From Schmidtea nova (taxonomy: Eukaryota), in the NCBI GenBank assembly GCA_044892505.1, contig CM097882.1, positions 419,926,001 through 419,990,000 on the forward strand: 64,000 nt of DNA. Direction: 5' to 3'. This document shows positions 1-53,805 of the stretch, in pieces; positions within the stretch are counted from its first letter, which is position 1, and each line of letters begins with the position of its first letter. The notes under the pieces are model-generated. The model ran no database searches, was not told the origin of the DNA, and saw only the letters and a program-made list of their open reading frames with translations. The position numbers were made by a program, and so were the translations under genes.

Positions 1-357
1 ATTTACGATAATGGAAGATTAATTATTAATGAATTATGTATTATAAACGTTAATAATATTTTTAGACCTAAATATTACATATATAATAAAGTTTGTAGTG
101 AGTGGTATGAGGAGGAAGATTACTTTTGTCCTACATGTATTATGAAAGATATTGAAGATACTAGTGCTATTTTCTATGTCATGGATATGGATAAACTTAT
201 TGCTTTGAAGAAATATTTTCCCACTTTGAGATTAATCAAATATAATTTAAAAGAAATTGATGCTGTTCCCGATAATATTTCCTGTCCATATCGAGATCAT
301 AATGTATGTGCCTATAAAGGATGTTTGGTCGGCGCTATTGATTATTTAAAAGAATAA
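1..357 (+). CDS. Small Cys/His-rich Polinton-associated protein, 5'-truncated by the window edge (paralog of 12060-12461)
   Basis: Frame 1 is open from base 1 (IYDNGRLIINELCIINVNNIFRPKYYIY...EEDYFCPTCIMKD...SCPYRDHNVCAYKGC) and aligns along its length with the 133-aa ORF at 12060. Confidence 0.85.
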   Translation: MYDNGRLIINELCIINVNNIFRPKYYIYNKVCSEWYEEEDYFCPTCIMKDIEDTSAIFYVMDMDKLIALKKYFPTLRLIKYNLKEIDAVPDNISCPYRDHNVCAYKGCLVGAIDYLKE

Positions 358-518
358 ATGTATTAAATATTATTGTCTTTTATTATTATTATTATTATTA
401 TTTCATGACAAATATTATTTTATAAAAGAGACAAAGAAATTACATCACAATAAATGTATTAATTATTATTATTTTATAAAAGAGATAAAGACATTACATC
501 AGAATAAATGTATTAATG

Positions 519-606
<88 letters not shown>

Positions 607-660
607 ATATTTCATGACTAATATCATTTTATAAAAGAGATAAAGACATTACATCAGAGG
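350..660. repeat. About three imperfect tandem copies of an AATAAATGTATT...ATAAAAGAGA(C/T)AAAGA(A/C)ATTACATCA unit with (TTA)n tracts
   Basis: The repeated blocks and ATT microsatellite can be read directly; the block starts at the AATAAA signal after the upstream ORF. Confidence 0.7.
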
Positions 661-787
661 TCATGAACTCGAATGTCTTTATCAATTCACTTAGAAACTA
701 TCATGACATTATGTGTCATACACACATATAAACACAAACCATAAAGAAAATATACATGTACACATATTTCTCTTCCCTAAAACGATT

Positions 788-832
788 TTCATTGGCTGGT
801 TAATAACCGTTGAAAATATCTCACTTATATAC
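788..832 (+). promoter_or_regulatory. Putative Pol II promoter (inverted CCAAT box plus TATA) of the unit-A leader/PolB transcript
   Basis: ATTGG at 791-795 and TATATA at 826-831, about 75 nt before ATG 904; the same layout recurs at 12716/12742 and 20292/20319. Confidence 0.55.
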
Positions 833-903
833 CCTATCTTTACATTCTTTCTTCACTTTTAAAAATCAAATTTTACGATTTCATTAAATTTAATTAAATC
901 GAT

Positions 904-1490
904 ATGATCAACAACATCAATAATATTTGCAAGAATGTCAACGCTATGGGTAATTCTATTTTCATTTTATTATATAATTTTTATATCATTTATTTATTTA
1001 CAGCGTCATTGACTCCTTCATCGTTGAATGGAATTGCGCCGAAGAATATAGTCTTAGGATTAAATGGTATTTATTTAATTTCTTAAATATATTTTTTATT
1101 TTAAATTGTAGAAATTAAACAAGTTAATTCTGATTTATTCAGACCAATTGATCAACGTGGACGAATTTTTCCCACGGATATTATTGGAGAAACCTCTAAT
1201 GGTATTTTATTGTTTTATTTTAAATATATTCGTTCAATTAAAATTATAGGAAATAAACAAACTACCTCAAATGCTCAACGTGGACGAATTTTTCCCGCGG
1301 ATATTGATGCAGAATCTACTATCGGTAATTTATTATTTATTATTATTATTAAATACTTTTAATTTACAAATTATTTTTAGAAATTATAGACAATGATGAT
1401 CATATGTTCTCAATGACAGAAAAGATTTCTCTGCCTGAATCCGCTGATGAAGATGATGATGATGACGATAATGCTTGGTCTAAATGTTAG
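904..1490 (+). CDS. Five-exon small leader gene of unit A (exons 904-949, 1004-1066, 1112-1201, 1250-1324, 1381-1490), all introns phase 1
   Basis: GT...AG introns of 54, 45, 48 and 56 nt. The joined frame is open (MINNINNICKNVNAMASLTPSS...QRGRIFPTDI...QRGRIFPADI...LPESADEDDDDDDNAWSKC*) and contains an internal QRGRIFPxDI duplication. Confidence 0.75.
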
Positions 1491-1966
1491 TTATTATGGT
1501 ATTTTTGTAAAGTTTTATGATATTTTCTAACAACATTTNNNNNNNNNNNNNNNNNNNNNNNNNNNNNNNNNNNNNNNNNNNNNNNNNNNNNNNNNNNNNN
1601 NNNNNNNNNNNNNNNNNNNNNNNNNNNNNNNNNNNNNNNNNNNNNNNNNNNNNNNNNNNNNNNNNNNNNNNNNNNNNNNNNNNNNNNNNNNNNNNNNNNN
1701 NNNNNNNNNNNNNNNNNNNNNNNNNNNNNNNNNNNNNNNNNNNNNNNNNNNNNNNNNNNNNNNNNNNNNNNNNNNNNNNNNNNNNNNNNNNNNNNNNNNN
1801 NNNNNNNNNNNNNNNNNNNNNNNNNNNNNNNNNNNNNNNNNNNNNNNNNNNNNNNNNNNNNNNNNNNNNNNNNNNNNNNNNNNNNNNNNNNNNNNNNNNN
1901 NNNNNNNNNNNNNNNNNNNNNNNNNNNNNNNNNNNNNNNNNNNNNNNNNNNNNNNNNNNNNNNNNN

Positions 1967-2360
1967 AACTAAATACTCATAATGATTTAAATTCAGAATT
2001 TAACTTGTATAAAAATCTCTTGGATTATACTGTTTATTTATTATTATTTAATGTTATATTATAAAAATGATAAATTGTTTCTCTTTAATTATAATAATAA
2101 TAATTTATATTATCTCACGACGAAATCAAGATAATATTAATATTATTATTATTATTTTTAAATATATATGTAGAATTTTACAATTTTATTAAACCAAATA
2201 CCCATAATGATTTAAATTCAGAATTTAACTTGTATAAAAATCTCTTGGATTAAACTGTTTATTTATTATTATTTAATGTTATATATAAAAATGATAAATT
2301 GTTTCTCTTTAATTATAATAATAACTTACATTATCTCACGATGAAATCGAGATAATGTTA
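1967..2360. repeat. Tandem duplication with a period of about 225 bp
   Basis: AA(C/T)AAATAC(T/C)CATAATGATTTAAATTCAGAATTTAACTTG...GAAATC(A/G)AGATAAT occurs at about 1967 and about 2192. Confidence 0.85.
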
Positions 2361-2437
2361 AAATATTTTTATTTTTTCGAATTTTAATAATTTTAAAATT
2401 TTTTCATACATTTTTTAATATTCTATTGTATATTAAG

Positions 2438-5400
2438 GCTCCTTATATTCAAATTACTGTAATATGTCTGGTAGACATAGTTTTCAATGTCATAAACTTA
2501 TGACAAATTATTATCGTCAAAAGTTTAATGGTATTGACTACTATGTATGCCCAAAATGTGAGACTGCACAAACCTTACCCTACCCTGATTTTTATTTTGA
2601 ACATCGTATTCATCTCAATCAATTTTCGAAATCAAAGAAACTAGTCTTTCAAAATTCTTTTAAGAAATCATCAAATAAAACTTCATCGAAACCTTGGTCT
2701 AATAATGTTTCTGTCGATAAATTGTCTTCGGTTAAAACCTCATCGAAACTTCCGACTAATCCTAAATTATTAAATAATTTATTAAATAATACTAATATTG
2801 AAATAATTAATAAGAAACGCCCTGCTGATAAAATTAAAACCTTAGCACATAAAAAATCTAAACCCGAGATTATTATTATTAGCGATGACGAAATTATTAT
2901 AAGCGACGATGAAATTATTAATCAAATAGGAGGCTCCATCAATATCGATGATGAGCCAGTCATTGAAAAAGATTTAAGAGGATCTCGACGATCATTAACT
3001 TTTAATGTCGAATCACACAATATTAATAAAATAGCTCTCACTGAAAAAATTACGGAACGGCTAAATACCGAAATAATTAAAATGGGGAATGTAAAACTCC
3101 AATTTGCCCTAAATATAGAATTCGAAAAAGACGGGGTTTACAAAAATGAATTTATTTCAACTAAAGCTGAAATATTTTCAGATGATTTATTAATAGAGCT
3201 GATTAGTAAATTAAATAATAAAGTAGAGAAATTCACACATATGGGTAGCGGTTGGACTGTAAATAAAATTAGGGAAATACATTTTATTTTAACAAAATAT
3301 TCACAGATTACTAGATTATCAGGACGCTGTTATTTTAAAACCCCTACACAATTATTAAATAAAAGGGCTATTATTAATGTCGAAAATAGTGATAATCTAT
3401 GTTTCGTATATAGTGTGTTGGCCATAACGAAATATAGTTCAATTAGTAGTAATCGATGTGCAACTTCGAGTTACACCTCTTTTTTAAATAGTTTAGTATT
3501 TAATCCTATAGACGACTGCCCCATGAAGTTATGCAACATCCCAAAATTTGAAAATAATAATCCTGGTTTGGCTATTAATGTACTTTCTTACAGCTCTAAA
3601 GTAAATAGAGATTTTAATGACGAGGAAGACCCTGATTATGTAACTCATCATCCCCACTTAGAAATTATACATAAGACCAAATTAACACATTTAAACCCTA
3701 TTTATCTGTTATTGTTAGAAAATGAGGGGGTTTACCACTACACTGCAGTCATTAATTTACAAAAATTAATGAACTGTCACAAAAATAGGATTGTTTCAGC
3801 TAGGATACAATCTTTATGATGTCCACAGTGTTTAAATGGTTTCCGTAAAAAGGAAACATTCGATACGCATTACAATTTATGTAAAAGAAATCAGATAGGT
3901 ACAACTCTTTTTAGTTTACCAAAAAATAAATTTTTAGAATTTAAAGATTTTTCGAAAACCGTAACCCCACCATTCGTAATATATGGAGACTTCGAGTCTA
4001 TTTTACCGATTGATGACAGGTATCACCAAAAGCATTTACCCATATCAGCAGGGTTGTTACTTATTAATAATTTTAATAATACAAAATCTTATTACCAATT
4101 TATAGGTCTTGAATGCGTAATTGACTTTCTTCGGAAAGTGGAGGAAATTGCTGTCACAATTGTCCTGCCCTATTACGACATTCATGGACATGCTCCATTA
4201 GGGACATTGTCCATTTCTGAGGAACTAAATTTCAGATCTTGCTCTCATTGTTATCTGTGTAAAAAACCTATTAGAAATAGAGTAAGAGATCACGACCACT
4301 TCACCGGCAGATATCTTGGCCCAGCTTGCAACATTTGTAATATTTCCCGTAGAATAAGGAAACATTTGCCTGTAATCTTTCATAATTTGAGAGGTTACGA
4401 CCTACATCACATTTTGAAGTACGGTCTGAAAAAATTTCCTTCTTGGGAATTACATATTATTCCTACCACTACAGAGAAATTTATTTCTCTGATTGCTCAC
4501 ATTAATAAACTGGCTGTTAGGTTTATTGATAGTTACCAATTTGTAACAGCGTCTTTGGATAAAGCAGTTAAAACTCTGTCAGTTTTGCCGCTAACATCGT
4601 CTGTTTTCATCGGTTCCATTATGGATTGTAAGGGTATTTTCCCTTTTAATTTTGCTACGAGTCTTGAGATTCTTCAATCAACTCTTGAATTGCCACCTAT
4701 TTGGGAGGAAGTAACTGAGACTCAATATTTAAAAGCTCAGCAAATCTGGCGCGAACAAAATTGTACAAATTTATTAGACTATATGATGGTCTACCTAAAA
4801 TTGGACGTATTTCTCCTCGCAGATTTTTTCCAGCAATTCCGAGCTATGTCCATTGATCACAATGGCTTAGATCCTTTGAATTTTTATGGAATTCCTGGTA
4901 TGTCATGGGCATCAGCGCTCATGACATTACAGGAACCTATAGAACTTCTACAGGATATGGAAATGTATAATTTCTATGAAGGAGGAATACGGGGTGGATT
5001 GACATTTGTCAATAAACATTATGTTCAAGCGTCAGATGATACTGAGCTTTTATATATAGATATTAATAATCTATATGGTTGGGCTCTTAGCCAAAATCTT
5101 CCTTTCGGTGACTTTAAGTGGGTATATGAAAATCTTGATGTAGTCTTGGCTGAGTGTATGTCGACGGAAATTGATGATCTTCCATATGGGTACACATTGG
5201 AAGTTGATATCGAAATTCCTGAAAACATACACGACTTTTTGGATGATTTCCCTATTGCTGCGGAAAAGAGGTGCCCACCATTGTCGAAGGTTGAGAAGTT
5301 GATGCTCACGCATTACGCAAAGTATAACGATGTTATACATTGGCGACTTCTGAAGATGTTTGTTTTTCTTGGGGCTAAGATTATAAAAATCCATAGGGCG

Positions 5401-6399
5401 ATTAGGTTCAAACAGTCGACTATCTTTAAAAATTATATCGATATTAATACTCAGTTACGAGTAAATTCGACTAGCGAGTTTGGCAGGAATTTCTTTAAGC
5501 TGAAAATCAACAGTATTTATGGTAAATCCGTAGAAAATCTGAAAAAACGGATGAATTTGAGATTATGTAACTCGGCTGAAAAACTGATTACATATTCATC
5601 AAAGCCGTCATTTAGAAAATCAATCAAAATTGATGATAATCTTATTGCGGCACATCTGAATAAAGATTTGATATGTTTAGATAGGCCTAGTTATATCGGT
5701 CAAACGATACTAGATCTATCTAAATTGCGGATGTATCAACTACAATATGTTGAATTGCAGAAATATAGAGATCTCTTTGATTGTACTATAAGTCTTGTTG
5801 CTGGCGACACTGACTCGTTCTTTCTTGAGGTTAAAAACTGTAAACTCGATACTCTTTTACCGGCTATGATATCTGATTGTCTTTTAGACACTTCAAACTA
5901 TGATCACAACCATCCTTTATATTCGTGACAGCTTGACTCTGTTATAGGTAAATTTAAGGACGAGAGTAAGGGTTGTAGATATAAGGAATGGGTTTTCTTG
6001 CGTCCTAAATGTTATAGTCTTCTTGGTGATGACGAATACAACAAAGCCAAAGGGATTAAACTTAAGGAAACTAGAATAAAGCATCAATCTTATATTGATT
6101 GCTATCTGAATGACTGTATCATCACTGTTCCGCAAACTCGTATAGGAACTAAAAATCATCAGCTTTATACTATTAAAAACACCAAAATAGCTCTAACCAA
6201 TAAGGACGATAAGCGGGAATGGGTGGGGAGAAATGCAAGTCTCGCATTTGGGCATTATCTAGGAGTCAATGCTAGAGCCAATGACGATAATATTCCACCG
6301 GATCAATTGCCCGATCAATTAACAAATCTAATAAATGAGCCTCATATCAGTGATCCTTATGATTTCGGTGAATGGGCGGATCCATTTGAAAGAGTTTAA
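2438..6399 (+). pseudogene. polB: Protein-primed family-B DNA polymerase (pPolB) of Polinton/adintovirus unit A, with two in-frame TGA codons (3817-3819, 5926-5928)
   Basis: Track ORFs 2464, 4054 and 5998 share one frame. Motifs: ExoI YGDFES, Endonuclease-VII-like CYLC...RDHDHFTG...CNICN, FHNLRGYD, YIDINNLYG, KLKINSIYGK, GDTDSFF, KFKDE, LRPKCYS. The frame is open back to an AG acceptor at 2436-2437. Confidence 0.95.
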
Positions 6400-7107
6400 T
6401 CAGGTAATTTAAATGTTTAGTAAATTTCATCCCATCATTCATTACATATTCAGAATATTTCAAGCAGAAAAACAAAATCATTCAATTTTATTTCAATCAA
6501 AACATCATCCAATTTCATCAGAACATCAAATTTTTCATCATAATCATCATCATCTTCAACGACTCACATCCTACAAAAATATTTTCTGTTTTTTGATTAT
6601 CTATTTTTCAATAAAATTTTTCGAAAATTTATTTTTCTATATTTTCTATTAAAAATTTTATGTTTAATGTTTGGATAATTTAGNNNNNNNNNNNNNNNNN
6701 NNNNNNNNNNNNNNNNNNNNNNNNNNNNNNNNNNNNNNNNNNNNNNNNNNNNNNNNNNNNNNNNNNNNNNNNNNNNNNNNNNNNNNNNNNNNNNNNNNNN
6801 NNNNNNNNNNNNNNNNNNNNNNNNNNNNNNNNNNNNNNNNNNNNNNNNNNNNNNNNNNNNNNNNNNNNNNNNNNNNNNNNNNNNNNNNNNNNNNNNNNNN
6901 NNNNNNNNNNNNNNNNNNNNNNNNNNNNNNNNNNNNNNNNNNNNNNNNNNNNNNNNNNNNNNNNNNNNNNNNNNNNNNNNNNNNNNNNNNNNNNNNNNNN
7001 NNNNNNNNNNNNNNNNNNNNNNNNNNNNNNNNNNNNNNNNNNNNNNNNNNNNNNNNNNNNNNNNNNNNNNNNNNNNNNNNNNTTAAGATATTGTCACAAT
7101 TTAAAAA

Positions 7108-7524
7108 ATGCCAGCACGTAAATCAGCTTATGATATCAGTGAAGAAAGAAAAATCAATAATGAAGTCAAACCGGTTCAAATGTATTACGATTACAAAATA
7201 TATTTCTTAGTACAAGAAATACCATTTCGTTTGTCGTATCCAGTGAAATTAACAAAGTCTTTGTATGACAATTTAGCTGCAAATTTAAGTAAAGAAGATG
7301 TTGTGGCACTAAATAAAGTTTTATTCAAAATCAATAACAATTTAAGTTGCAAGGAAACCATATGGATTAACAATCGAAAAACTCGTTTCCATGATGCTTT
7401 CCAATCAATCGAATACAAGGATCAAGAAAATTGGTTTATTACCATAATAATTCAGGGCTATAAAATCGATACAAAGGATGTTATAACTCCAATTTGGAGA
7501 ATTGACAGTGCACGATATGCATAA
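7108..7524 (+). CDS. Hypothetical 138-aa protein downstream of PolB-A
   Basis: Intact ATG-to-TAA ORF with protein-like composition, followed by AATAAA-like signals; no recognised family. Confidence 0.65.
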   Translation: MPARKSAYDISEERKINNEVKPVQMYYDYKIYFLVQEIPFRLSYPVKLTKSLYDNLAANLSKEDVVALNKVLFKINNNLSCKETIWINNRKTRFHDAFQSIEYKDQENWFITIIIQGYKIDTKDVITPIWRIDSARYA

Positions 7525-7799
7525 ATGTTATTTTATAAATGTTATTTAATAAATGTTAGTAATTTAAATTTTAGTTTTTGATTGTTCCATTTTTTATAAG
7601 ATNNNNNNNNNNNNNNNNNNNNNNNNNNNNNNNNNNNNNNNNNNNNNNNNNNNNNNNNNNNNNNNNNNNNNNNNNNNNNNNNNNNNNNNNNNNNNNNNNN
7701 NNNNNNNNNNNNNNNNNNNNNNNNNNNNNNNNNNNNNNNNNNNNNNNNNNNNNNNNNNNNNNNNNNNNNNNNNNNNATAGAATAATTTTAAAGTTTTTA

Positions 7800-8930
7800 T
7801 ATTTGACCTACATAATTGTGACATAGAAAATTATCTATTTGACCTACTTTTTTCTTACATAGAAAAATTATATTTCACCTACTTTGTTGACCTTAAAGTA
7901 TCCTTAAAGTACCCTTAATTCTGACTTTGAAAAATTTTGCAATTTATTATTAACCTATTTAATTTTACATAGAAAAAATTTAGAAATTATTATTGACTTA
8001 CTTAATTTGTCCTCGTCGTGACCTTAAATTGACCTACTTAATTCTGACATAGAAAAATTTTGAAAAAATAAAGTTGACCTACTTATTTATGACATAGAAA
8101 AAATTTTCGTGACCTACTTAATTCTGACATAGAAAAATTTTAAAAAAAATAAAGTTGACCTACTTTTTTCTGACATAGAAAAATTTTTGAAAAAATAAAG
8201 TTGACCTACTTTTTTCTGACATAGAAAAATTTTAAGAAAAATAAAGTTGACCTACTTTTTTCTGACATAGAAAAATTTTTGAAAAAATAAAGTTGACCTA
8301 CTTTTTTCTGACATAGAAAAATTTTTGAAAAAATAAAGTTGACCTACTTTTTTCTGACATAGAAAAATTTTTGAAAAAATAAAGTTGACCTACTTTTTTC
8401 TGACATAGAAAAATTTTTTAAATTATTATTGACCTACTTAATTCGTTGTCATAGCAACTATCAAATTTTGAAAAAATTAAGTTGACCTACTTATTCGTTG
8501 TCATAGCAACTTAGAAATAGTTGACCTACTTTTTTCTGACATAGAAAAAATTTGAAATTTATATTTGACCTATTTATTTTAACCTTAAATTCACCTTAAA
8601 AATATTTGACCTACTTAATTTGTCCTTATCGTGACCTTAAATTGGCATTCTTTTTGACCTTATAGTGTCCTTAAAACGACCTTGACCTACTTTTTTGTCC
8701 TCAAAGTGTCCTTAAACCATAAATTTGACCTTAAATTCACCTTAAAGTGTCCTTAAAACGACCTTGACCTACTTTTTTGACCTTAAAGTGTCCTCAAAGT
8801 GACCTTAAGCGAAAAATTTGACCTTAAAGTGTCCTTAAAGTGTCCTTAAGCAAAAAATTTGACCTTAAATTGACCTACATAAAATTTGACCTACATAAAA
8901 AAAAAATTTCTAGGGGGGGGGGTCTTGACC
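7800..8930. repeat. Tandem array with a 46-bp core unit (AAAGTTGACCTACTTTTTTCTGACATAGAAAAATTTTTGAAAAAAT) and degenerate flanks, ending in a G-run
   Basis: A 46-bp period is visible (TTGACCTAC at 8155, 8201, 8247); roughly 30 TGACCT hexamers by eye count. Confidence 0.95.
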
Positions 8931-8931
8931 T

Positions 8932-9969
8932 ATATCTGGCGGGCTCACTTCCTACTACTTTCTACTTAGCAACAGTTGTCCCGATATACATCCAGATAAT
9001 ACTTCCAGTAATTTCATGGTCAATCTTTAAAATCCAATGTATTTGGACGGGATTTGGGAAGTCGCTCTCTTAGACTTTACATTTGTGTATAATCCATTTC
9101 CATTTTACAGTAAATCAGAAATTCGGTACAAAAAGAAAACTATACATACAAAATATAAAAATTTGATTATCAACAATCAACTTTGTGAAGTTGATATATC
9201 TAATCCTGCCGATGATATTGCTCAAATGAGTAGCGATAGACATTCTATTTATTTTACCTGTGATAATTTTCCCTTCACTATAACTTTTGATACTTTGGCA
9301 ATGGCAAAAAGAATGGGATTAACGAAACAGAGTATTGTAAGTCCTACAGATACATACAAGATACCGTTACCGGCATATGGTATAGATGGTCCATTAACGG
9401 AAAAAATTAGAATAAAGATGGAGTACAAGGCTGATTCTGCATTTATACATACATTTGCCGATAATTTATACATATCGAAACTGGATGAAATGCAATCATA
9501 TTTTATTCTAAATTGTGCAAGTATTTTTAAATCGTTGGAGTTGGTAGATGATAGTTACTTCAAATTCAGTTTGAATGCAGATGTTAGCGAAATAACCTTT
9601 GACAATAATCTTGTAAAAACATTGGGATTATCGAAAGCAACATATGCTCAAGATGGAAGCTTCACTGTTGGAATATATAAACCGAAAATAATTAAACTTC
9701 ATCAGCAAATGTTCATTTACAGTAATATAGTCAATCCTATAATTGTTGGTGATTCATTAGTTCCCATGTTGAAATCTGTATGGATTGAAAAATATGAACA
9801 GGATGAGGTTGTTCAAATACAAGTTGAAAATCCAATGTATTTATCTGTTTCAACATCCTGTATAAACAATATAGAAATAAATATCCGAGATGATAGTGGT
9901 AATTTAATAAACTTTCCAAAAAATTCCAAAACTCATTTGACTCTACATTTTCGAAAACATCATGAGTAA
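8932..9969 (+). pseudogene. Polinton minor capsid protein (penton), with in-frame TAA at 9028-9030 and no ATG before the conserved N-terminus
   Basis: Reading upstream of ORF 9037 in frame gives YYFLLSNSCPDIHPDNTSSNFMVNL*NPMYLDGIWEVAL. The C-terminus MFIYSNIVNPIIVGDSLVPMLKSV...NIEINIRDDSGNLINF...LTLHFRK is typical of Polinton penton proteins. Confidence 0.85.
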
Positions 9970-11649: not shown

Positions 11650-12027
11650 ATGGAGTAAGTTTTTTAATTGATTAATTATTTATTTTTAATTAGTTCTATT
11701 CAGGTATTACATCAAGGTAAAAAACTATTGGGAAATCAATTTATTGGAGTATTTCCGCTAGATAAAATACCTTATTTGAAAATGAATCAAGCCATCATTG
11801 TAAATACTCAGACATCTACGTTGGGTGGTGAACATTGGATTGCAGTTTACGTGAAACCAGATCGAATACATGTATTTGATCCCTTTGGGTATTATTATCC
11901 GAATTTACTTGTTCGAAAACTTCAAACTATCGGTAAACCTATTGTGTATAATAGAATTCGATATTAGCATCCCTTAACAATCACTTGTGGTGAACATTGC
12001 CTTGCATGGTTGAAATCAATGTTATAA
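11650..12027 (+). pseudogene. Adenain-like cysteine protease with a 39-nt intron (11655-11693) and in-frame TAG at 11965-11967
   Basis: ATG GA|GTAAGT...TTAG|T TCT gives MDSIQV. Motifs: FIGVFPLD, IVNT, GEHWIAV (His), VFDPFG (Asp), Y*HPLTITCGEHC (the stop replaces the conserved Gln before the catalytic Cys). Confidence 0.9.
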
Positions 12028-12824: not shown

Positions 12825-13189
12825 ATGCAAAATATGAAATTAAACTTGGAACGAAGAGTCGCCGGAGGAATTAATAGTAAGATTTTTATTTTATTTTATT
12901 ATTATTATTAATTTCTTTTTTTTTCAAGCTATTAATATCGCAAATAATGTGGCAGGATCCTCAACAACTGGACTGAGAAATCAAAATGATTTAATTGGTA
13001 AAAATTATTACTATTTTATTTTAATTTTCTTTAATATTAATTTTGTAGTAAACAATTACCAAGATGTGGATATCGATGCCCCTCTTAATGATGATGTCAT
13101 GCTTAATGTTGATGTCCCGCTTAATGTTGATGCTCCGATTATTGAAGTCCCGATTTTCAATGGCCAGAGTTTTAAAAACTCTCGAAAAT
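12825..13189 (+). CDS. Multi-exon small leader gene of unit B (exons 12825-12876, 12929-12997, 13049-about 13189), phase-1 introns
   Basis: GT...AG introns of 52 and 51 nt. The joined frame is open (MQNMKLNLERRVAGGINTINIANNVAGSSTTG...VNNYQDVDIDAPLNDD...); it occupies the same position as the 904-1490 gene. The 3' end is uncertain. Confidence 0.65.
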
Positions 13190-14093
13190 GTAATTTTTTA
13201 TTCTTATTTTTTTATATGATGATAATAATAGTATTTTTGGTATTTTTAATTAATTCATATGGATATTTTTAATTAATTTATGAAAAAGAATTTATATTAT
13301 TATTATAAAATAAAGATGATTTTAATGATGAATTTAATAAATGATGAAGAAGAATATGACAAAGTATTGTTGCTGATGAAATGATTATGTTTATTTTTTG
13401 ATGAAATGACAAAGAAGATACATTTTGATGAAGAATATGACGAAATAATAATGAACTATTTTATTGATGAAATTAATAGCAGATGAAGAATATGACAAAA
13501 TAATGATGAATGGAATATTTGATGATCAAATGATAAAGAAGATGAATTCTGATGAAGAAATTTTTTATCATTATTAATGATGATGAAATTATTTTTTTTT
13601 ATTATGACGAATTAATGATGTTAATATTTTTTATAATGATATAATAATGATGAATTATTTTATATTAAATTTAATATTGAATCTACCTTTTATCATATTA
13701 AGTAATTGTTTAAAATATATTATTTAATATGTTAAAAGGTAGATTACTAAGATTAACAAGATGAATTTAGATGTTATATAATGATGATATTTTTTTTAAT
13801 GTCAACAAAAATAGGATAATATGACGAAAACTTTTATATTAATTTATATTTAACATATTAAGTAGTATATAATTCAAACAATTACTTAATATGTTAAAGG
13901 TAAATTAATAAATATGATATTAACAATGCGAATATTGACGAATTGGAATAAAAGTTTTTAAACTATTTTTAATAAAATATAATGATTATATTAGTATTTT
14001 TTTTAACAATTTATAATTATTTAACCATTTATAAATATTATTTAACCATTTATAATTTAACCATTTTATTTAAATTTTTTTTTTAACATTCAG

Positions 14094-17000
14094 GTTCAAT
14101 TTATTACAATTTTTGTAATAGTAGTTCCCATAGTGACTGTCATGTCATTATGAAAAATACTATTCATTTAAATATAATGGTGTCACCCACCTCCTCTGCC
14201 CTAATTGTAAAATTATTGAAACAACATCTTATAGGGAATTTTATATCTTTCATAGGTCACACCTTTCTCAATACATGACTTCGAAAAAATCTCTTTTTAA
14301 TAGCTTATATGCTAATTATATTTTTAATAATAATACCTTTAATCGAAATAATATTAACAACAACAACAACAACTATCATAATACAATTAATAAAAATATT
14401 CTAAATAATCTACAAAATAAGAATACAATTAATCAAAATAATAACCTAAATCAAAATAATAACCTAAATCAAAATAATAATCTACAAAATAATAATAATA
14501 TACAAAATAATCTAAATAATACATCTAATTTAAATAAACGTAAAAATACAACATTAATGGATTCAGTTCCTAAAAAACTTATAATAATCGACATCNNNNN
14601 NNNNNNNNNNNNNNNNNNNNNNNNNNNNNNNNNNNNNNNNNNNNNNNNNNNNNNNNNNNNNNNNNNNNNNNNNNNNNNNNNNNNNNNNNNNNNNNNNNNN
14701 NNNNNNNNNNNNNNNNNNNNNNNNNNNNNNNNNNNNNNNNNNNNNNNNNNNNNNNNNNNNNNNNNTGAAGATGATCATATTTATAATAAAAGTAGCAATA
14801 TAGATATTATATCTGCCATTGACGATGACTTAATCGTCGTCAATGATGATGAATTTAATGAAATGATAAATATTATAAATAATAATAATCAAATTGGTAT
14901 GGGTATTGTTGAAGTTACTTCCGACTTGAACGATACCCATTTTATTATAAAAATGGACGTTTCTAATTTATTATTAAAAACGGTCTCTGTGCCGGATATA
15001 TTGTTAGAGAAATTAAACTCATATATAATTAAATTAAAATCATGTAAAATACAATTTTGTCTCAAGGTAGAATTTGAGAAAGATGATCAATTACAATCTT
15101 TTGTAATCTCAAATTCTGCCAGAGAGTGGAGTGATACCTTTATTGAGGAAGGTATCACTAGTTTAAATGAGAAGATTGTCCAGATTAACGAAAAGGGGAG
15201 TAATTGGACAATCTCCAAAATCGAATATATTAGTTTTTTAGTTACAAAATTTTCAGAGATTAGTAGGTTGAGCGGCAGCAGTTATATCGAAACTCCTAAT
15301 ACATTAAAAAATTTAAGTTGCCTAGTTAATGTCAACAATAACGACACTTATTGCTTTCTATATAGTTTTTTAGCAATAGTTAAATATGATAGTATTGAAC
15401 GCCAATACCGGCATAGGGTTACTTCTTACGATCTTTCCCAACTGACTTTTGACCCGAATGACATGCCTATGAAATTAGTCAACATTAAGAAATTCGAGAG
15501 GCAAAACCCCGGCTACAGCATTAATGTCCTTACATATGACGAAAAGGCCCAAATAGATATAAGTGATAGCGATAATGATGATAATGTCGTTCTTAAACAC
15601 CCTTTTATAGACATAGTATATCGCAGTAAAGTAGTCGGGGCAATTCCAATAAATTTACTTCTCTTGGAGAAAAAAGATAATTTTCATTATCTCGCGATTA
15701 CCGATCTGAATCGCTTTTTGAATTGCCGAAATAGTACCATCACCCCAGTTAGGATTTGCAGCCAATGGTGCCCTCGTTGCTTGAATGGCTTTAGGAACGA
15801 CGAAGCCTTTAATCGTCATAAGGGTCTTTGTACCAAAAATCAGTTGGGTACCACACTCTACACATTACCCAAAAATAAATTTTTAGAGTTTACTGATTGG
15901 AAGAAAACAGTAACTCCTCCTTTCGTAATATATGCTGATTTCGAAGCAATATTACCCAAAGATATTATTCATCACCAAAAACATATTCCTATTGCTGCCG
16001 GTCTTCTTCTGATAAACAACTTTACTGGGGTCAGAATTTACAAGTCTTTTGTAGGATTAGACTGTGTTGACCAATTTCTAAATGAAATTGAGTCAATCAG
16101 TAGATATATAGTCACTCCCTATTATTTTAAGAATTATAAAAAGCGCATGACCATCACTGCGACTTAACAGCGAGAATTTGACAATAGCACTAATTGCTAT
16201 TTATGTAAAAAGCTTTTAAATACCCCTGTTAGGGATCATGACCATTTCACCGGTCTTTATATTGGAGCAGCCTGCTCAGAGTGCAACAAGTCCCGGCAAA
16301 TAAGACACTCTTTGCCTGTTATCTTTCATAACTTGAAGGGCTATGATTTGCACCATATCTTAAAATATGGTCTTTCAAAATACAACACTTGGAATATCAG
16401 TTGTATTCCCTTGACTAGTGAAAAGTTTTTAAGCCTTTTCGCTTATATAGACAGTCTTACTGTTAAATTTATTGACTCCTATCAATTTGTGAGTGAGTCC
16501 TTGAACAATGCCGAAAAAACCCTTAGTTCTTTACCATTAACTCAGTCAGAATTTCGTGGCACTATAGTGACTGCCAAGGGCATCTTTCCATACGACGCTG
16601 CCACTTCTTTAGAAGTATTTAAATCTACCTTGTGTTTACCACCTAAATGGAAAGATATAACTGCTGTCGAGTATGCTGCGGCCCATAAAATTTGGCAAGA
16701 AACCTCATGTACATCACTGTACGATTACATGATGGTTTATTTGAAACTAGATGTTTTTTTATTAGCTGACTACTTTCAGCAATTTCGAATAAAACCAATT
16801 AACCATAACAGGCTTGAGCCTTTAAGTTTTCTCGGAATTCCCGGCATGTCGTGGAGTTCCGCTTTATTAACTCTTGACTCTCCTATCAAGCTCCTCGCCG
16901 ATATAAAGATGTATAACTTTTTCGAGGGCGGTATTCGCGGCGGACTAACGTTTGTCAATAAACATTATGTCAAAACGAGCCCGGATACCGCACTATTATA

Positions 17001-18271
17001 TATTGACATTAATAATTTATATGGGTGGGCCTTAAGCCAACCCTTGCCATGTGGTAATTTTGAGTGGGTCACTGATGACCAATTATTAAATAATATCGTG
17101 TTGCAGTGCACATCGGAAAATCTCGATACACTTCATTATGGTTACACCATAGAAGTGGATTTGGAAATTCCGGCATCGATTCACGACAAACTGGATGATC
17201 TTCCAGTTGCCGCTGAAAAGATGTGTGCACCGGGATCCAAGGTTGAGAAGCTGTTGCTAACGCATCTTCCAAAGAAGAATTATGTTATTCATTGGCGGCT
17301 TCTGCAACTATTTATTAAAATTGGTGTGAAAGTAACGCACATACATCGCGCTATTAAATATAACCAAGAAAAAATCTTTTTTAATTACATAAATATAAAT
17401 ACCAGTTTACGAGCGGCTGCAACTAACAAGCTCGACAAAGATTTTTACAAATTATTAAATAATAGTCTCTACGGCAAAACCGTAGAGAACTTAAAAAAAC
17501 GTATTAATTTGCGACTGTGTAACTCAGCACAAAAACTGCTGACTTACACGTCGAAACCAAATTTTAAAAAAACAAACAAAATCGATAGTGATCTGATCTC
17601 TGTATTGCTTCAGAAGGAATCAGTATGTTTGGATAGACCCAGCTACATCGGACAAACCGTACTGGATTTATCCAAACTTCGTATGTACCAGCTGCAGTAT
17701 GAAGAGTTACAAAAATATCGTAACGACTTCAACTGCGAAATTAACATCGTTGCTGGGGATACTGATTCCTTCTTCTTGGAAATAAAAAATCTGCCTTTGG
17801 ACACTCTTTTAGCTGCCATGATTCGCGATAGGCTTTTGGACACCTCTAATTACGACACTCGTCATACATTGTATAGTAGGACCCTTGATTCTGTGATTGG
17901 TAAATTTAAGGATGAGAACAAGGGTCTACTGTATGATGAGTGGGTTTTCTTAAGACCTAAATGTTATAGCTTGATGGGAGACGAGGCCTGCATGAAAGCT
18001 AAGGGTATCTGTTTAAAAGATGCAGGTCTCACACATCAGTCTTATCTCGACTGTTTTCTTAATGACAAAATCTATAATGTCCCCCAGTTCCGCATTACGA
18101 GCAAAAACCACCAACTTTTTAGTATTAAAAGCAATAAGAGAGCCTTATCTTGTAGGGACGATAAGAGGAACTGGGTGGATAAAAATAAAAGTTTGGCGTA
18201 TGGCCATTATATGGGGGGTGACACCACTATATTTGTAGGTGATGATGGATCAGAACAGCAGCAGCAGCTTC

Positions 18272-18351
<80 letters not shown>

Positions 18352-18411
18352 GGTCCGGCAGATGACCCCTACGAGTTTTACGATCCGACTGCTCGAGACT
18401 ACTTCGGATAA
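14094..18411 (+). pseudogene. polB: pPolB of unit B, with a 1-nt frameshift at about 14157, in-frame TAA at 16165-16167 and a C-terminal polyQ
   Basis: Track ORFs 14275 and 16312 share one frame and carry the same motif set as PolB-A (YADFEA, RDHDHFTG, YIDINNLYG, KLLNNSLYGK, GDTDSFF, KFKDE). Homology to PolB-A extends up to an AG acceptor at 14092-14093. Confidence 0.95.
18271..18351 (+). repeat. (CAA)27 microsatellite encoding polyQ in the PolB-B tail
   Basis: Read directly; in frame with PolB-B. Confidence 0.95.
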
Positions 18412-24814: not shown

Positions 24815-25155
24815 TTTTTGTTTGTGATCAGCGTGAATATGAAAATATGTAAATATTAAAACAAGTCTATTAATTTTTACTCCATTTAATAATTACTTAA
24901 ATTAAATTAATTAATTTAAAAAATAAAAGAAATTTATAAAATTGAATATTTAATCTAAGGCACTACAATAATTATAATAAAATTATATAAGTATTTCTTC
25001 GGATGTCATCTTGGTTGTATTTCCAATGAATTGAATAAATATATTTTATTTTACGGAAAATTTATTTACATTTAAATACACTGTATTATGTAATCATATA
25101 ATATTTATATAATAACAAGTCTAAAAATACATAAAACATTTTCAAAGTTCAAAAC

Positions 25156-26103
25156 ATGCCTATGAGAAAAGTAACAAAAAGTTTACAAGATAAAAAACGT
25201 GAAAAATCGAAATCAAAAAAATCAACTTCAATATTTAAATCAATTTTAAAAAGCATAACAAAGGGGAAATTTGCACCTTTCCTTTCAAAATTTAGATCAA
25301 ATTTTAACAAAGAGCCAGCTAATGAATATGTTGTTCTGAAACCCTTATATACTACCAGTGGGTCCACCATATTGCTAGTAGAAGAGGAAAGATCTGGACA
25401 AAAATACATTCAGAAAGTGTTTAAAAACGCTTTATTTTTTACAAATGAATTGAAAATGATGCTTAAAGTTGGTCAACATGACAATATAATTCCATTCATT
25501 GAATCCATTGACTCCTACATATTAGGCAAATCTCTGATATACGAGTTTGCTAACGGCGGTGATCTCTGCCATGAAATCATGTCAAGTGGAAGAGTTACCA
25601 ATCATACAGCCATGACAATAATGTTACAAGTTTTTAGTGCAGTCTCATTTATACATTCAAAGTCCATCATTCATCGTGACATAAAGTTAGATAACATTGT
25701 TTGCTATAAACATAACAATATCTTGATAAAAGTCAAACTGATCGATTTCGGGTTTTCTATTATATATGATAAGAAAAAGCCCATTGTAAGTTTGGCAGGA
25801 ACAGTGGGCTACATGGCACCGGAAATGCTTTTATATCAACCCCATACGTTGGCAGTTGATATATGGTCATGTGCGATTCTCATGATAACTGTTTGCACTG
25901 GTCGTCATCCATTGAATCCGAATATATTAACGACATTTGAAATTAAAAATATAACTCTCTATGGTAAAATAGACCTGGCTGTCATTGAAGACATAGATAC
26001 ATTTGTCGCAAATATTATTCGAAAGATGTTGCTAAAAGCACCATCACAACGACCACCAGCAATTGATATATTGAACAGCCTGAAAAGTCACTGTTTTGAC
26101 TAA
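25156..26103 (+). CDS. Intronless Ser/Thr protein kinase (CAMK-like), 315 aa
   Basis: IYEFANGGDL, IIHRDIKLDNI, KLIDFGFS, GTVGYMAPE and DIWSCAI are present; the Gly-rich loop is degenerate. Confidence 0.92.
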   Translation: MPMRKVTKSLQDKKREKSKSKKSTSIFKSILKSITKGKFAPFLSKFRSNFNKEPANEYVVLKPLYTTSGSTILLVEEERSGQKYIQKVFKNALFFTNELKMMLKVGQHDNIIPFIESIDSYILGKSLIYEFANGGDLCHEIMSSGRVTNHTAMTIMLQVFSAVSFIHSKSIIHRDIKLDNIVCYKHNNILIKVKLIDFGFSIIYDKKKPIVSLAGTVGYMAPEMLLYQPHTLAVDIWSCAILMITVCTGRHPLNPNILTTFEIKNITLYGKIDLAVIEDIDTFVANIIRKMLLKAPSQRPPAIDILNSLKSHCFD

Positions 26104-33750: not shown

Positions 33751-36700
33751 TCATCCATAAATGAAACGAGAAATTGATCCATTTCTAAATGTACATTTAT
33801 ATATTAAACGAAAATCGAGAAAATGAAAATTTGCACCATCATCAAAAAACTCAATTTCATTTTTATCTGGAACAATCGATGGAGCGATTTGTTGATAAAC
33901 AGGTTGATTAACAGACGCTCGGTTTGTCATGTCATTTAATACAGATTTGGGATCGAAAATAATTGGCGGAATTTCAGAGCACTCAATTATAATATCTTCT
34001 ATGTCTTTTATACAGATCAACGGGTGATTTCCCCAATCTTCATCTCCTGGAGAAATTATGTCTGCGATATTTGACTTGGTTACGTTGAAATAATATTTCT
34101 TTCCGGATGGAGAGAAAATTGATACCTGATTATTATGAATGTAATATAAAAATATTTCGATTTTCAAGCCAGTATTTTTTAGATGTTTTGAATAAAGATA
34201 ATTATCGTAATAATAGTGTTCTGAAATTGATAGTTTTAGAGAAAATGATACTTAACATATATTCCGTTGTTGACGTCATTTTTTAATGTATAAATATGTG
34301 TGTGTCCGACAATTTAATTTTTTTAAATTATTTTTTAATCATTTCAATTATCGTATATTTATATAAAGCACAAAAGTTATTCTTATATAATATTACCTAC
34401 ATATTATTTCTGTATGTGATAACTTTAATAAATATATGATAAATTTATGATAAATGTATTCTTATATAATATTACCTACATATTATTTCTGTATGTGATA
34501 ACTTTATAATAAATATATGATAAATTTATGATAAATGTATTCTTATATAATATTACTTACATATTATTTCTGTATGTGATAACTTTAATAAATATATGAT
34601 AAATTTATGATAAATGTATTCTTATATAATATTACCTACATATTATTTCTGTATGTGATAACTTTATAATAAATATATGATAAATTTATGATAAATGTAT
34701 TCTTATATAATATTACTTACATATTATTTCTGTATGTGATAACTTTAATAAATATATGATAAATTTATGATAAATGTATTCTTATATAATATTACCTACA
34801 TATTATTTCTGTATGTGATAACTTTATAATAAATGTATGATAAATTTATGATAAATGTATTCTTATATAATATTACTTACATATTATTTCTGTATGTGAT
34901 AACTTTAATAAATATATGATAAATTTATGATAAATGTATTCTTATATAATATTACTTACATATTATTTCTGTATGTGATAACTTTAATAAATATATGATA
35001 AATTTATGATAAATGTATTCTTATATAATATTACCTACATATTATTTCTGTATGTGATAACTTTAATAAATATATGATAAATTTATGATAAATGTATTCT
35101 TATATAATATTACTTACATATTATTTCTGTATGTGATAACTTTAATAAATATATGATAAATTTATGATAAATGTATTCTTATATAATATTACCTACATAT
35201 TATTTCTGTATGTGATAACTTTAATAAATATATGATAAATTTATGATAAACGTATTCTTATATAATATTACTTACATATTATTTCTGTATGTGATAACTT
35301 TAATAAATATATGATAAATTTATGATAAATGTATTCTTATATAATATTACTTACATATTATTTCTGTATGTGATAACTTTATAATAAATGTATGATAAAT
35401 TTATGATAAATGTATTCTTATATAATATTACTTACATATTATTTCTGTATGTGATAACTTTAATAAATATATGATAAATTTATGATAAATGTATTCTTAT
35501 ATAATATTACTTACATATTATTTCTGTATGTGATAACTTTATAATAAATGTATGATAAATTTATGATAAATGTATTCTTATATAATATTACCTACATATT
35601 ATTTCTGTATGTGATAACTTTATAATAAATGTATGATAAATTTATGATAAATGTATTCTTATATAATATTACTTACATATTATTTCTGTATGTGATAACT
35701 TTAATAAATATATGATAAATTTATGATAAATGTATTCTTATATAATATTACTTACATATTATTTCTGTATGTGATAACTTTAATAAATATATGATAAATT
35801 TATGATAAATGTATTCTTATATAATATTACTTACATATTATTTCTGTATGTGATAACTTTAATAAATATATGATAAATTTATGATAAATGTATTCTTATA
35901 TAATATTACTTACATATTATTTCTGTATGTGATAACTTTATAATAAATGTATGATAAATTTATGATAAATGTATTCTTATATAATATTACTTACATATTA
36001 TTTCTGTATGTGATAACTTTATAAACAAAATTATAATTTTTATCAAGAAAAAGTATTAGACCACTTTATGAAATATTAGATTTTAATAATTATAATACTT
36101 AATTTAATTAGGAAATTAAAAAATTCAAGTAAATATTAATAATATTTTTTTAAATATTGAATTTCCGTCATAAAAATATTTTTTTTCATTAAGTATAGTT
36201 AAAAAGGAAAATTAAATGAAACTACTAGAAAATAAAGATAATTATCGTAATAACAAAAGTGTTCTGAAATTGATAGTTTTTGAGAAAATGAAACCTAACA
36301 TATATTCCGTTGTTGACGTCATTTTTAATGTGTATACATGTGTGTGCGTCCGACAATTTATTTTTTTTAAATTATTTTTTAATCATTGCAATTATAGTAT
36401 ATTTATATAAAAGCACAAAAGGTATTCTTATATAATATTACTTACATATTGTTTCTGTATGTGATAACTTTATAAACAAAATTATAATTTTTATCAAGAA
36501 AAAGTATTCGACCACTTTATGAAATATTAGATTTTACTGATTATAATACTTAATTTAATTAAGAAATTAAAATATTCAGGTAAATATTAATAATATTTTT
36601 TTTAAAAATTGAATTTCCGTCATAAAATATTTTTTTTCATTTAGGTATAGTTAAAAAGGAGAATTAAATGAAACTACTAGAAAAGTTATTGAAGTTCTTT

Positions 36701-41856: not shown

Positions 41857-42064
41857 CTAAATGAACTCATAAATTTTAAATGAGTAGAAATGTGTTTTAA
41901 AAAAAGTTTTAAAAAATTCTCAAAGTTAAGTGACAGAATTGATATGCATTTCCAAAAAAAATAAAAACGATAAAGGGGTTAATGGAGTATGACTTGTGAA
42001 TTAAATTTTTTTGTGAATTAAAACTTTGTTGAAGGTCAAATAAAAGAAATTGTATAATTAAAAA

Positions 42065-42068
<4 letters not shown>

Positions 42069-42115
<47 letters not shown>
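42069..42115. repeat. (TA)n microsatellite abutting the transposon TIR
   Basis: Read directly. Confidence 0.95.
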
Positions 42116-42118
<3 letters not shown>

Positions 42119-43307
42119 GGTGGTCCAAAAGTAGGTATACAGTAATTAATATTACAGTAATATTACAGTATACAGTAATTAATATTACAGGTTTGGTATT
42201 ATCTTTAAATGAAATTGTTTATTTGTATAATTTAATTCAGATAATCATGGCTGGTAATTTAAATATTGACCAACGTAAATGGGTAATCAAACAATATTGG
42301 AGAACAACTAACGCTGCAATGGTGATACGGAAATGGACGGAAGAATTTGAAACGCCGCCACCATCCAGACTTACAATCTACAGATTGCGAGACAAATTTG
42401 ATACAACAGGATCAATCTGTAACGCACCAAAGATTGGTCGACCGAGAACTGTTGTAACACTAGGAAATGAAAAGATTGTCTCGACCGCATTTAAGCGAAG
42501 CCCGAAAAAATCAAAACACAGAGCTTCCATTGAATTAGGTATTCCCCGCACATCTTTGAGTCGTATGATGAAAACTTTGGGCTTGAAAATGTATCACCCA
42601 AGATTAATCCACGGATTATTAGAAGATGATCCGGATCACCGGTTACAATTCTGCGAGAAAATTTTGAACGAAGAAGAGCAACAAAATGCTATCATAGAAA
42701 AAATTTGTTGGCAAATTTTAAGCTTTCAGGCGCTGTTAATAGGCATAACTGTGTCTATTATACCACGGAAAATCCGCATATCACAAATGAAGAACAGTTA
42801 AATCAACCTGGGGTTACAGTTTGGGCAAGCATTTCATGCAAAGGGGTTATTGGACCTTTCTTTTTCCATACAACTGTGACACATGGCCTGTATCTAAATC
42901 TCTTGAGAGATACTGTCATCCCACAAATACTGCAGATGTTTGATAATGAAGAATTCTATTTTCAGCAGGATGGAGCTCCTCCTCACTATGCAACAGCAGT
43001 GCGTCAATTTCTTGACGAAGAATTGCCTCATAGATGGATAGGTCGACGAGGGTCAATTGAATGGCCACCGATGTCACCTGATCTCACTCCAATGGATTTC
43101 TTCTTTTGGGGTATTATCAAAAATAAAGTTTTTTCAAAAGAGTCACGCACCATTGATGACATGACTAAATTTATAAAAAAGGCATGCAAAGAAATAGACA
43201 ATAATGAAGAACTCTGTGCAAAGGTTTGTCTCAGTGTGAAGAAAAGGCTACAAGAATGTATCTGTGCTGAAGGCAAACAATTTGAACACATCAGAAACTG
43301 TATATAA
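42116..43307 (+). mobile_element. Tc1/mariner-superfamily rosa-type (DD41D) transposon, frameshifted
   Basis: Left end CAGGGTGGTCCAAAAGTAGG follows TA; HTH N-terminus; QQDGAPPH...WIGRRG..EWPPMSPDLTPMD has 41 residues between the 2nd and 3rd Asp; frameshift at about 42705-42712. Confidence 0.9.
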
Positions 43308-52770: not shown

Positions 52771-53805
52771 TTGGTCGAATACAGTAGACCATATACTTTA
52801 ACGACTCTCATTTTTTTTCACAACAAACAAATAAAACAACACTACACACAAAGACAAATAGCATCGAAACAACAAAACCTAACAAACAATCCCCAAACAC
52901 ACAACAACGAAACCACACCCAACCAAGAAGAGAACACCAACTATTATTACACCCATGAAAACCATCACACCATAAATACAAATAATAAACCCCAAGGCAA
53001 ACATTCCAAATTACTTACAGACGAGAACGGCACACCCCAAAAAATGGATAGAATTCTCAAATCGACAAAAAGCTTATGCTCCCACACAATAGTCGGCCTA
53101 CCTAGCAATATTTTAATTGAAATCGCAGACCGAATCGACGAAATAGCGAAAAGCGACGACCCATTTAATCTAATATATACAACCTTACTAAACAGAAACA
53201 AGGTGAACAGGAGGGAAGTATTGGAGTCTTGCTTAAAAGATATACAGCTTGGAAATGACAAACCAAGCGAATTTCTGCGAAATCTGAAGAGCAAATTAGA
53301 ATTTTTACCACCCAAAATCACAAATGCGGATCAAAATGATTTCGTGAAAGACCTACTCATGAGGGCAATGCCACAATATATAAGACGCATCTTAGCCGCA
53401 AATGACAGCACAGACCTCGACAAAATAGCCGATATCGCGGACAAAATAAATGACGAAATATTCCCAACAGTTTGCAAAACATACCGAAAACAGCACTCTA
53501 ATAACGATACCAATCTTCTACTGAACTCGTTAATAAATAAAGTCGACGAGGTCCTAATAGAAAACAAGAACCTCTGGAACAATTTACAAGAGGTACAAGC
53601 GAAAGAAATGAAAAGAAACCAACTCAACCAAAACAATCAAAAAAACCACACAGAACAAAACCCAAATTTTAACCGATACAATAACCCAAACAACAACTAC
53701 ATGCAAAATGAAAATTGGTGTTACTTTCACAATAGATTTGGGGACAAGGCTTTCAAGTGCAAAGCACCTTGTACCTTCCGCGACAAAAATCAGGAAAACA
53801 ATTAA
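52771..53805 (+). CDS. gag: Ty3/gypsy Gag
   Basis: QLGNDKPSEFLR, LLMRAMPQYIRRIL, LDKIADIAD and a C-terminal WCYFHNRFGDKAFKCKAPCTF knuckle. Confidence 0.9.
   Translation: MVEYSRPYTLTTLIFFHNKQIKQHYTQRQIASKQQNLTNNPQTHNNETTPNQEENTNYYYTHENHHTINTNNKPQGKHSKLLTDENGTPQKMDRILKSTKSLCSHTIVGLPSNILIEIADRIDEIAKSDDPFNLIYTTLLNRNKVNRREVLESCLKDIQLGNDKPSEFLRNLKSKLEFLPPKITNADQNDFVKDLLMRAMPQYIRRILAANDSTDLDKIADIADKINDEIFPTVCKTYRKQHSNNDTNLLLNSLINKVDEVLIENKNLWNNLQEVQAKEMKRNQLNQNNQKNHTEQNPNFNRYNNPNNNYMQNENWCYFHNRFGDKAFKCKAPCTFRDKNQENN

Follow-up and report, generated by a model that had tools for sequence, protein, structure and literature searches.

A predicted multi-exon leader likely supplies the start of the protein-primed DNA polymerase in Polintons of Schmidtea nova

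Polintons, or Mavericks, carry the gene for a protein-primed DNA polymerase of family B (pPolB) in which a terminal-protein (TP) domain is followed by a vOTU domain with catalytic Cys and His residues (PMC11161782; here and below, what is said of a cited source applies to the sections of it that were available). Intact vertebrate Mavericks are reported to lack introns, in stated agreement with Kapitonov and Jurka 2006 (PMC8097293), and the core genes of nematode Mavericks are termed intronless, with introns only in cargo genes (10.1101/2022.07.12.499685). Splicing is not mentioned in the available sections of PMC8502044, PMC11161782, and PMC4028283, and those of 10.1101/2023.08.22.554363, PMC12220804, PMC11957031, and PMC6431247 cover only self-splicing introns, introners, or unrelated cases. 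No report of a spliced Polinton pPolB was found in the literature searched, the founding 2006-2007 papers, Repbase, and supplements lying outside that scope. In adenoviruses, the polymerase (Pol) and precursor terminal protein (pTP) of the E2 region take their start codon from a spliced upstream exon; in human adenovirus 31 (HAdV-31), c4866-8042 is joined to c13193-13201 (PMC2794291, Table 1), and a junction giving a spliced start is described for turkey hemorrhagic enteritis virus (THEV) (PMC11304566), while the available part of PMC7851563 is silent on a spliced adenovirus start. Here we analyze a stretch of 64,000 nucleotides from Schmidtea nova (contig CM097882.1, forward strand; hereafter the window), part of an animal-type genome of 1.25 Gb, that carries two nested Polintons, elements A and B. 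Comparison among related elements supports well a layout in which the start codon and N-terminal extension of pPolB lie on a leader of short exons, as a first-pass annotation had proposed when it noted that callers based on open reading frames (ORFs) would miss them.

Element A is a complete Polinton of 18.2 kb. It spans L081:736 (left end) to window position 8959, with its right half at 1-8959, and is flanked on both sides by a 6-bp target duplication, TTCTAC. Its terminal inverted repeats start with AGT and comprise blocks that are 96 to 100% identical; the right repeat (7083..8959, no strand assigned) ends in ..CTACTACT and is followed by the target duplication at 8960-8965. The element is inserted into the minor-capsid-like gene of element B (window 8960-9969), whose pPolB shares 65% DNA identity with that of element A. 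The likeness to described Polintons with pPolB of the Alpha adintovirus type, PF03175 with OTU (PMC8502044, PMC11161782, PMC8097293), rests on the inverted repeats, the 6-bp target duplication, and the gene set. The last comprises pPolB with candidate TP-like and vOTU-like regions (Pfam PF03175, E 2.9e-28 in A and 3.5e-27 in B), a retroviral-like integrase (PF00665, E 1.1e-8 on the first exon, with a chromodomain below the cut-off on the second exon), a packaging ATPase (Pox_A32, E 3.9e-6), an adenain-type protease (Peptidase_C5, E 6.3e-6), and putative capsid-like ORFs of 407 and 337 amino acids at the expected place, which have no relevant Pfam match and no phage match and are named from motifs typical of capsid proteins. 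Unlike described Polintons, these elements have a predicted zinc-type module ahead of the TP-like region, and the descriptive trait of intronless core ORFs, which lies outside the formal definition, does not hold here, introns being predicted in pPolB, integrase, and protease. Each of the two families gave at least 150 scored genome matches, and among those listed for family A, 113 have an open 1320-residue frame by hand count. In the window itself, the pPolB of element A is interrupted by two in-frame stops, one ending at 3819 and the other at 5928; its scored sister copies mostly have an open frame.

The leader of element A lies on the + strand, behind a predicted RNA polymerase II (Pol II)-type promoter at 791..857 that contains the CCAAT and TATA elements noticed earlier (ATTGG, the reverse of CCAAT, at 791, and TATATA at 826) plus TCACT at 853. 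Exon 1 (904..949, 46 nt from ATG 904), exon 2 (1004..1066, 63 nt), exon 3 (1112..1201, 90 nt), and exon 4 (1250..1324, 75 nt) end in phase-1 donors and are separated by introns 1 to 4 at 950..1003 (54 nt), 1067..1111 (45 nt), 1202..1249 (48 nt), and 1325..1380 (56 nt), all of which run from GT to AG at 7 to 12% GC. Exon 4 is a tandem duplicate of exon 3 (1063-1247 versus 1198-1374, 69%). The acidic exon 5 (1381..1485, 105 nt) ends in AAA T, directly followed by the donor GTTAGT. The introns have GT and AG ends and a pyrimidine tract, and their removal restores the frame, as is characteristic of spliceosomal introns; the spliced leader would encode approximately 126 low-complexity residues. The pPolB frame is open upstream of ATG 2464 to a phase-1 acceptor, TATTAAG/GC (the slash marks the splice site), which ends at 2437 with a stop immediately upstream in frame; the downstream frame reads SLYSNYCNMSGRHSFQCHKLMTNYY. 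These positions, the phases of all five exons, and the donor AAA T/GTTAGT at 1485/1486 with TAG at 1488-1490 agree with the first-pass annotation. The predicted long intron (1486..2437, +), with the in-frame TAG just inside it and TTAAG at its end, contains a 225-bp tandem duplication at 1967-2402; the assignment of its two ends to each other is proposed from a conserved cysteine, as set out below. The pPolB exon (2438..6399, +; PF03175 and PF02945) then encodes a predicted zinc-binding module, a linker, TP-like (approximately 2970-3300) and vOTU-like (approximately 3360-3760) regions with the TP/vOTU-type motifs GSGW at 3244, NLCF at 3394, and HYTA at 3736, an exonuclease with an endonuclease VII insert, and the polymerase. 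A TP-like fold model of the relative P0196 matched Y-family polymerases weakly (E 0.02-0.08) and an adintovirus protein at E 2.5e-7. Because the TP-like region lies inside the pPolB exon, the leader is not a counterpart of pTP.

We favor a reading in which the entire leader is constitutively spliced to pPolB within one Pol II transcript, with exon 5 joined to the acceptor at 2437, and put its probability at roughly 0.85. Transcription would begin from the promoter at 791-857, the host spliceosome would remove the short introns and join the five phase-1 exons, and exon 5 would then be joined across 0.7 to 1.4 kb to the pPolB exon. This join would add the approximately 126 low-complexity residues as a variable arm, together with the first base of a Cys codon (T + GC), and the completed Cys is predicted to be the first ligand of the first of two zinc sites, ahead of the TP, vOTU, and polymerase domains. 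Transcription, splicing, zinc binding, and the long join as the normal route are all inferred from sequence features.

A frame-blind intron caller, whose scoring is our own and was devised after the introns had been seen, recovered all four short introns in positions 880-1500; among 300 Markov resamples of the leader region, 268 gave no call, 31 gave one, 1 gave two, and none ever reached three. Over both strands of the 64 kb, the same caller made 48 calls (approximately 0.4 per kb per strand), and isolated calls therefore mean little. Composition alone favors phase 1, which accounts for 194 of 419 [AT]G/ sites (46%), and at that prior phase 1 throughout would occur in six independent introns with a probability of 0.009; given this bias and the fact that exons 3 and 4 are duplicates, the phases of the five exons do not count as separate draws. 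The background of calls and the compositional bias are what a chance pattern of GT and AG in AT-rich DNA, with no splicing, would have in its favor. The resamples, the conservation across seven families, and the intron-split integrase core described below oppose it, leaving such a chance pattern a negligible prospect.

Evidence for the long join comes from the codon at the acceptor. Relatives found by protein search and on metagenome contigs open with the motif C-x5/6-C-x3-5-H..C..M..CxxC..HxxH, whose first Cys is present in all 11 aligned relatives that have this segment (three others start later or lack it and are outside the 11), as well as in P0126 and P0140. In families A and B this column is the codon cut by the acceptor. 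Unspliced, the codon would read Gly, preceded by a stop or by sequence resembling an intron. Splicing from any of the earlier family-A donors, all of which end in G, would again yield Gly, and splicing from the last donor, AAA T/, yields Cys. The join from the last donor alone thus rebuilds the Cys, and the earlier claim that any leader donor would join pPolB in frame stands for the frame and fails for the residue. Splicing of pPolB from another donor, either that of an earlier leader exon or that of an unseen exon in the long intron, would be in keeping with the in-frame position of all leader donors and with the 11 to 23 AG dinucleotides in the long intron; the earlier family-A donors, however, would put Gly in place of the Cys found in all 11 relatives, and the intron, at 10% GC, repeat-rich, and 686 to 1388 nt long across family-A copies, contains no conserved exon that we noticed. 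This route is decidedly improbable.

The module that the Cys opens in element A (2438..2620, +) reads C-x6-C-x5-H-x3-C and then CPKC..HxxH, with the first Cys codon split by the intron, and is predicted to bind zinc; its Pfam matches all fell below the cut-off, a fold search gave no match, and a PDB search gave none at E<=0.001. In P0257, P0292, P0028, P0024, and L102, the CxxC..HxxH half of the module is apparently repeated in tandem. Three relatives, L088, L089, and L090, have their own ATG 2 to 5 codons ahead of the Cys, are free of introns there, and keep the later Met internally; the later Met need therefore not be a start.

Searches with distant relatives as queries turned up five further families, C to G, with 34 loci; at this codon, all 34 have an AG and then GC or GT. 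Over the first 60 residues, identity among the seven families is 35 to 60%, and all of them have a tract rich in T and place AG within that codon; in every family representative the exon side of the acceptor is GC or GT, the last two bases of a Cys codon, and upstream of the acceptor the frame contains stops and no Met. A phase-1 T/GT last donor in families C to G was a prediction recorded before the 12 upstream stretches were examined. All four copies of family G, with a first exon of 52 nt and three or four exons, and both copies of family D end in AAA T/GT in phase 1, so that the intact leaders of four families (A, B, D, and G) have this last donor.

Within family A, the T/GT last donor is kept in 43 of 43 sister rows and the AG/GC or AG/GT acceptor in 45 of 45; the rows include five duplicate pairs and the copies are 97 to 100% alike, making this conservation weak evidence. 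The divergence of its leader makes family B informative. In element B the leader (12825..13189, +) has exons at 12825-12876, 12929-12997, and 13049-13189, all phase 1, with the last donor AAA T/GTAATT, and pPolB (14093..18411, +) follows an acceptor, CATTCAG, that ends at 14093, with a frameshift soon after the acceptor and a stop ending at 16167. The promoter motifs have the same order and spacing as in A (-109, -76, and -56 from the ATG). The last donor matched T/GT in phase 1 at 30 family-B loci. In the exon calls for 30 loci, four have no promoter in the flank, four gave only one or two exons (all phase 1), and one has a miscalled start; 18 of the remaining 21, which have three exons, are phase 1 throughout although exon lengths vary (28/52/55, 66/69, and 123-171 nt). 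Of 34 family-B loci, 33 retain the acceptor (one lacks the anchor motif), and in 25 distinct rows its positions -6, -5, -4, -2, and -1 are invariant, while neighboring positions vary in up to 13. The survey of other genomic copies that the first-pass annotation had suggested as a check thus found the acceptor retained in families A to G. Across 12 haplotypes of family B, after removal of two frameshifted rows, the 18 codons from acceptor to first Met preserve Cys, His, and Cys; synonymous changes occur there, and stops do not. In family-B exon 1 (window 12825-12876 and sisters), a [VI]AG[GA] motif is kept across diverged copies, and many relatives have Q-x-G-G-like motifs before the TP domain; both resemble adenain cleavage sites.

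Exact-pattern searches found no intron-free genomic copies of the long junction for A or B, an absence that is weak evidence. No database protein joining leader to pPolB was found, the gene callers behind those entries being ORF based. Sequencing runs X1 to X4 over the A region and X1, X2, and X4 over the B region yielded no joint with GT and AG ends; with Nextera-type adapter ends and unspliced contigs, they behave as DNA and are uninformative on splicing, and their depths were not used.

An arrangement without a long join would have two separate genes: a mini-exon gene ending at TAG 1490, and a pPolB with its own transcript, from an internal promoter or by spliced-leader trans-splicing at the AG, with translation beginning at Met 2464 or Met 2500. 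The Met of codon 20-21 (Met 2500 in element A) is conserved in all seven families and in unspliced relatives, and many database proteins are called from it; a stop and AATAAA follow exon 5; and flatworm spliced leaders carry AUG (PMC9851317). Yet the 19 or 20 codons before that Met are under coding constraint and match the N terminus of unspliced relatives that keep the Met internally. The long intron of one family-A sister copy lacks the set of ATTGG, TATA, and TCACT, and two genes would leave T/GT at the donor and GC or GT after the acceptor unexplained. A trans-spliced leader ending in AUG would join in phase 0, and this frame runs into a stop after 21 codons in A and after 19 in B; trans-splicing at this AG was rejected on frame. 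ATG 2464, at codon 10, is peculiar to family A with no counterpart in the other six families and was rejected as the pPolB start; no intact relative that starts there unspliced, which the first-pass annotation had named as counterevidence, was seen. On balance, two genes are very unlikely.

A second proposal, compatible with the long join, is that a leader-only short protein is also made, through retention of the long intron or an intronic poly(A) site, with splicing acting as a polymerase switch. In family A, TAG comes straight after the last donor, and every row compared has AATAAA 55 or 67 nt past it; in family B, AATAAA occurs within 150 nt of the donor in 21 of 31 loci versus 13.4 expected. 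The intron is also long, with weaker signals. The chance of an AATAAA in the 80 nt concerned is approximately 0.18 in family A, whose copies are not independent, and in family B its place ranges from +24 to +265 or it is absent. Read-through tails of 1 to 40 residues differ between and within families with no conserved end, and the leader, acidic in A and B, is instead rich in Asn in G (4 D+E in 110 codons). A leader-only product is not needed to explain the data, and we hold it as a tentative possibility. The earlier suggestion of one alternatively spliced unit accordingly keeps its extended polymerase, and the small acidic protein is a weak part of it. By analogy, such a Polinton could gate its own replication by host splicing, removal of the long weak intron deciding whether a full polymerase, its zinc site complete, or a leader-only product is made; this would be a switch by tissue or stage, like that of the P element, on an endogenous DNA virus with hundreds of open copies, an idea we consider speculative and rather doubtful.

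Several observations weigh against the favored reading. At 0.7 to 1.4 kb, the long intron is 15 to 25 times longer than the other introns, and in family A it has weaker signals (GTTAGT and AAG) than the short introns, with a stop right after the donor and, in sister copies, AATAAA 55/67 nt on; translation could also start at the conserved Met of codon 20-21. The copies of families C and F that were examined have broken or missing leaders and provide no test of the donor. The single, decayed copy of family E ends in AAAT/GTGAGT, with a first intron that does not resolve to phase 1. In family B, the last-donor search motif itself required T before GT, and three of the 21 three-exon leaders (L054, L062, and L080) are one base off in exon 3.

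Constitutive splicing of the leader fits a wider pattern. L105 (the same element type as L092), L111, and L093 run from their own ATG through three, three, and four frame-blind short phase-1 introns, without a stop, into pPolB; the introns of L105 and L111 lie after the zinc module, and two of those of L093 lie inside the enzyme. At L091 the caller placed the last donor 4 nt late; a duplicated exon, by the position of its GTAAGT, puts the donor at GTTAGT, the donor used by exon 5 in element A, which gives four phase-1 introns. More distant loci have scattered intron phases, as background would give. Metagenomic relatives have either an unspliced start just before the Cys or phase-1 introns elsewhere in pPolB, and no relative was found among viral contigs. 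A quick tree search, relied on solely for the pairing of A with B, groups the two as sisters (support 92), next to the P0004 and P0006 clusters, longer members of which begin with residues resembling an intron tail, as judged from the proteins alone. The N termini of P0126, P0140, P0005, P0008, and P0011 likewise resemble translated intron tails.

Other core genes are interrupted as well. The integrase core is split by a 43-nt intron, the interruption in families A and B being phase 1. In A, B, and L092 the protease ATG lies on a micro-exon before a phase-2 intron, which in element B is 39 nt long (11655..11693, +) and follows ATG GA, with the same site in A (L081:9561-9598) and L092. Splicing would thus be characteristic of the lineage, with some introns outside phase 1. 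The integrase and protease introns observed at sites shared across elements are at L081:6238-6280, L081:68-101, window 11655-11693, L081:9561-9598, and L092:4419-4455 (-). A high-scoring 50-nt intron call also stands at the start of a 169- to 184-residue accessory ORF of element A (L081:3801-3850, -). In related elements, Polinton core genes, including pPolB, are described as intron-free.

Introns have been reported inside Polinton-like elements of other hosts, as introners in dinoflagellate proviruses (PMC11957031), group I introns in cryptophyte Polinton-like viruses (PMC12220804), and introns of cargo genes in nematode Mavericks (10.1101/2022.07.12.499685). For the most part, those were inserted after integration, belong to host genes that were captured, or are self-splicing, whereas the introns described here are of spliceosomal type, lie in core genes, and occupy sites shared between families. 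The adenovirus E2B genes share with pPolB a protein-primed polymerase and, as predicted here, a start codon on a distant upstream exon. In adenovirus, however, one 9-nt phase-0 coding exon is shared by separate Pol and pTP, an arrangement absent here: three to five phase-1 exons would add 85 to 126 residues, TP is fused to the polymerase, and the junction would build a conserved Cys. We claim no common origin for the two spliced starts.

The Drosophila P element offers a different likeness. Its third intron acts as a regulated switch, retention of which gives a truncated product. In both elements a key enzyme would need the removal of one last intron, with regulation only conjectured for the Polinton.

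Duplication and loss of symmetric 1-1 exons probably built up the leader, and its starting point would have resembled the relatives with an ATG 2 to 5 codons before the Cys; the presence of three to five exons per family fits the idea that symmetric exons can duplicate or drop out without breaking the frame. The relatives with an unspliced start, with introns after the zinc module, and with a leader before it form a set for tracing intron gain in viral genes, and the elements would be a living parallel to the spliced start of the adenovirus polymerase. Treating Polinton core genes as intronless would lead annotation to cut pPolB by approximately 135 to 145 residues, damage its Cys-His module, and split integrase and protease. 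Dependence on the spliceosome, if true, would link these elements to expression by Pol II in the nucleus and to hosts whose splicing of short introns is compatible.

Element A also carries a TATA-binding-protein-like gene (L081:4060-4524, -; PF00352, E 4.4e-14), head to head with the ATPase gene, in an element whose promoters have TATA boxes. A 139-residue ORF with no Pfam match lies inside both inverted repeats (window 7105-7524, +; L081:2271-2690, -), giving two identical copies per element. In G000, pPolB matches occur as close inverted pairs at C1:376559738(-)/376560631(+), C1:320342048(-)/320346970(+), C1:342725290(-)/342732480(+), C1:560006661(-)/560009404(+), and C1:23733189(-)/23738713(+), which suggests fold-back or head-to-head derivatives. 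At L083:2140-2170 and in the upstream flank of L077, the end of another Polinton abuts the region upstream of pPolB; Polintons insert into each other's long intron or leader. Elsewhere in the window are a protein kinase ORF (25135-26103), a tandem array of units of approximately 79 to 81 bp that are 96 to 98% identical (34378-36040), a DUF4817/DDE_3 transposase (42058-43307), and a retroviral-type protease ORF (53736-54698).

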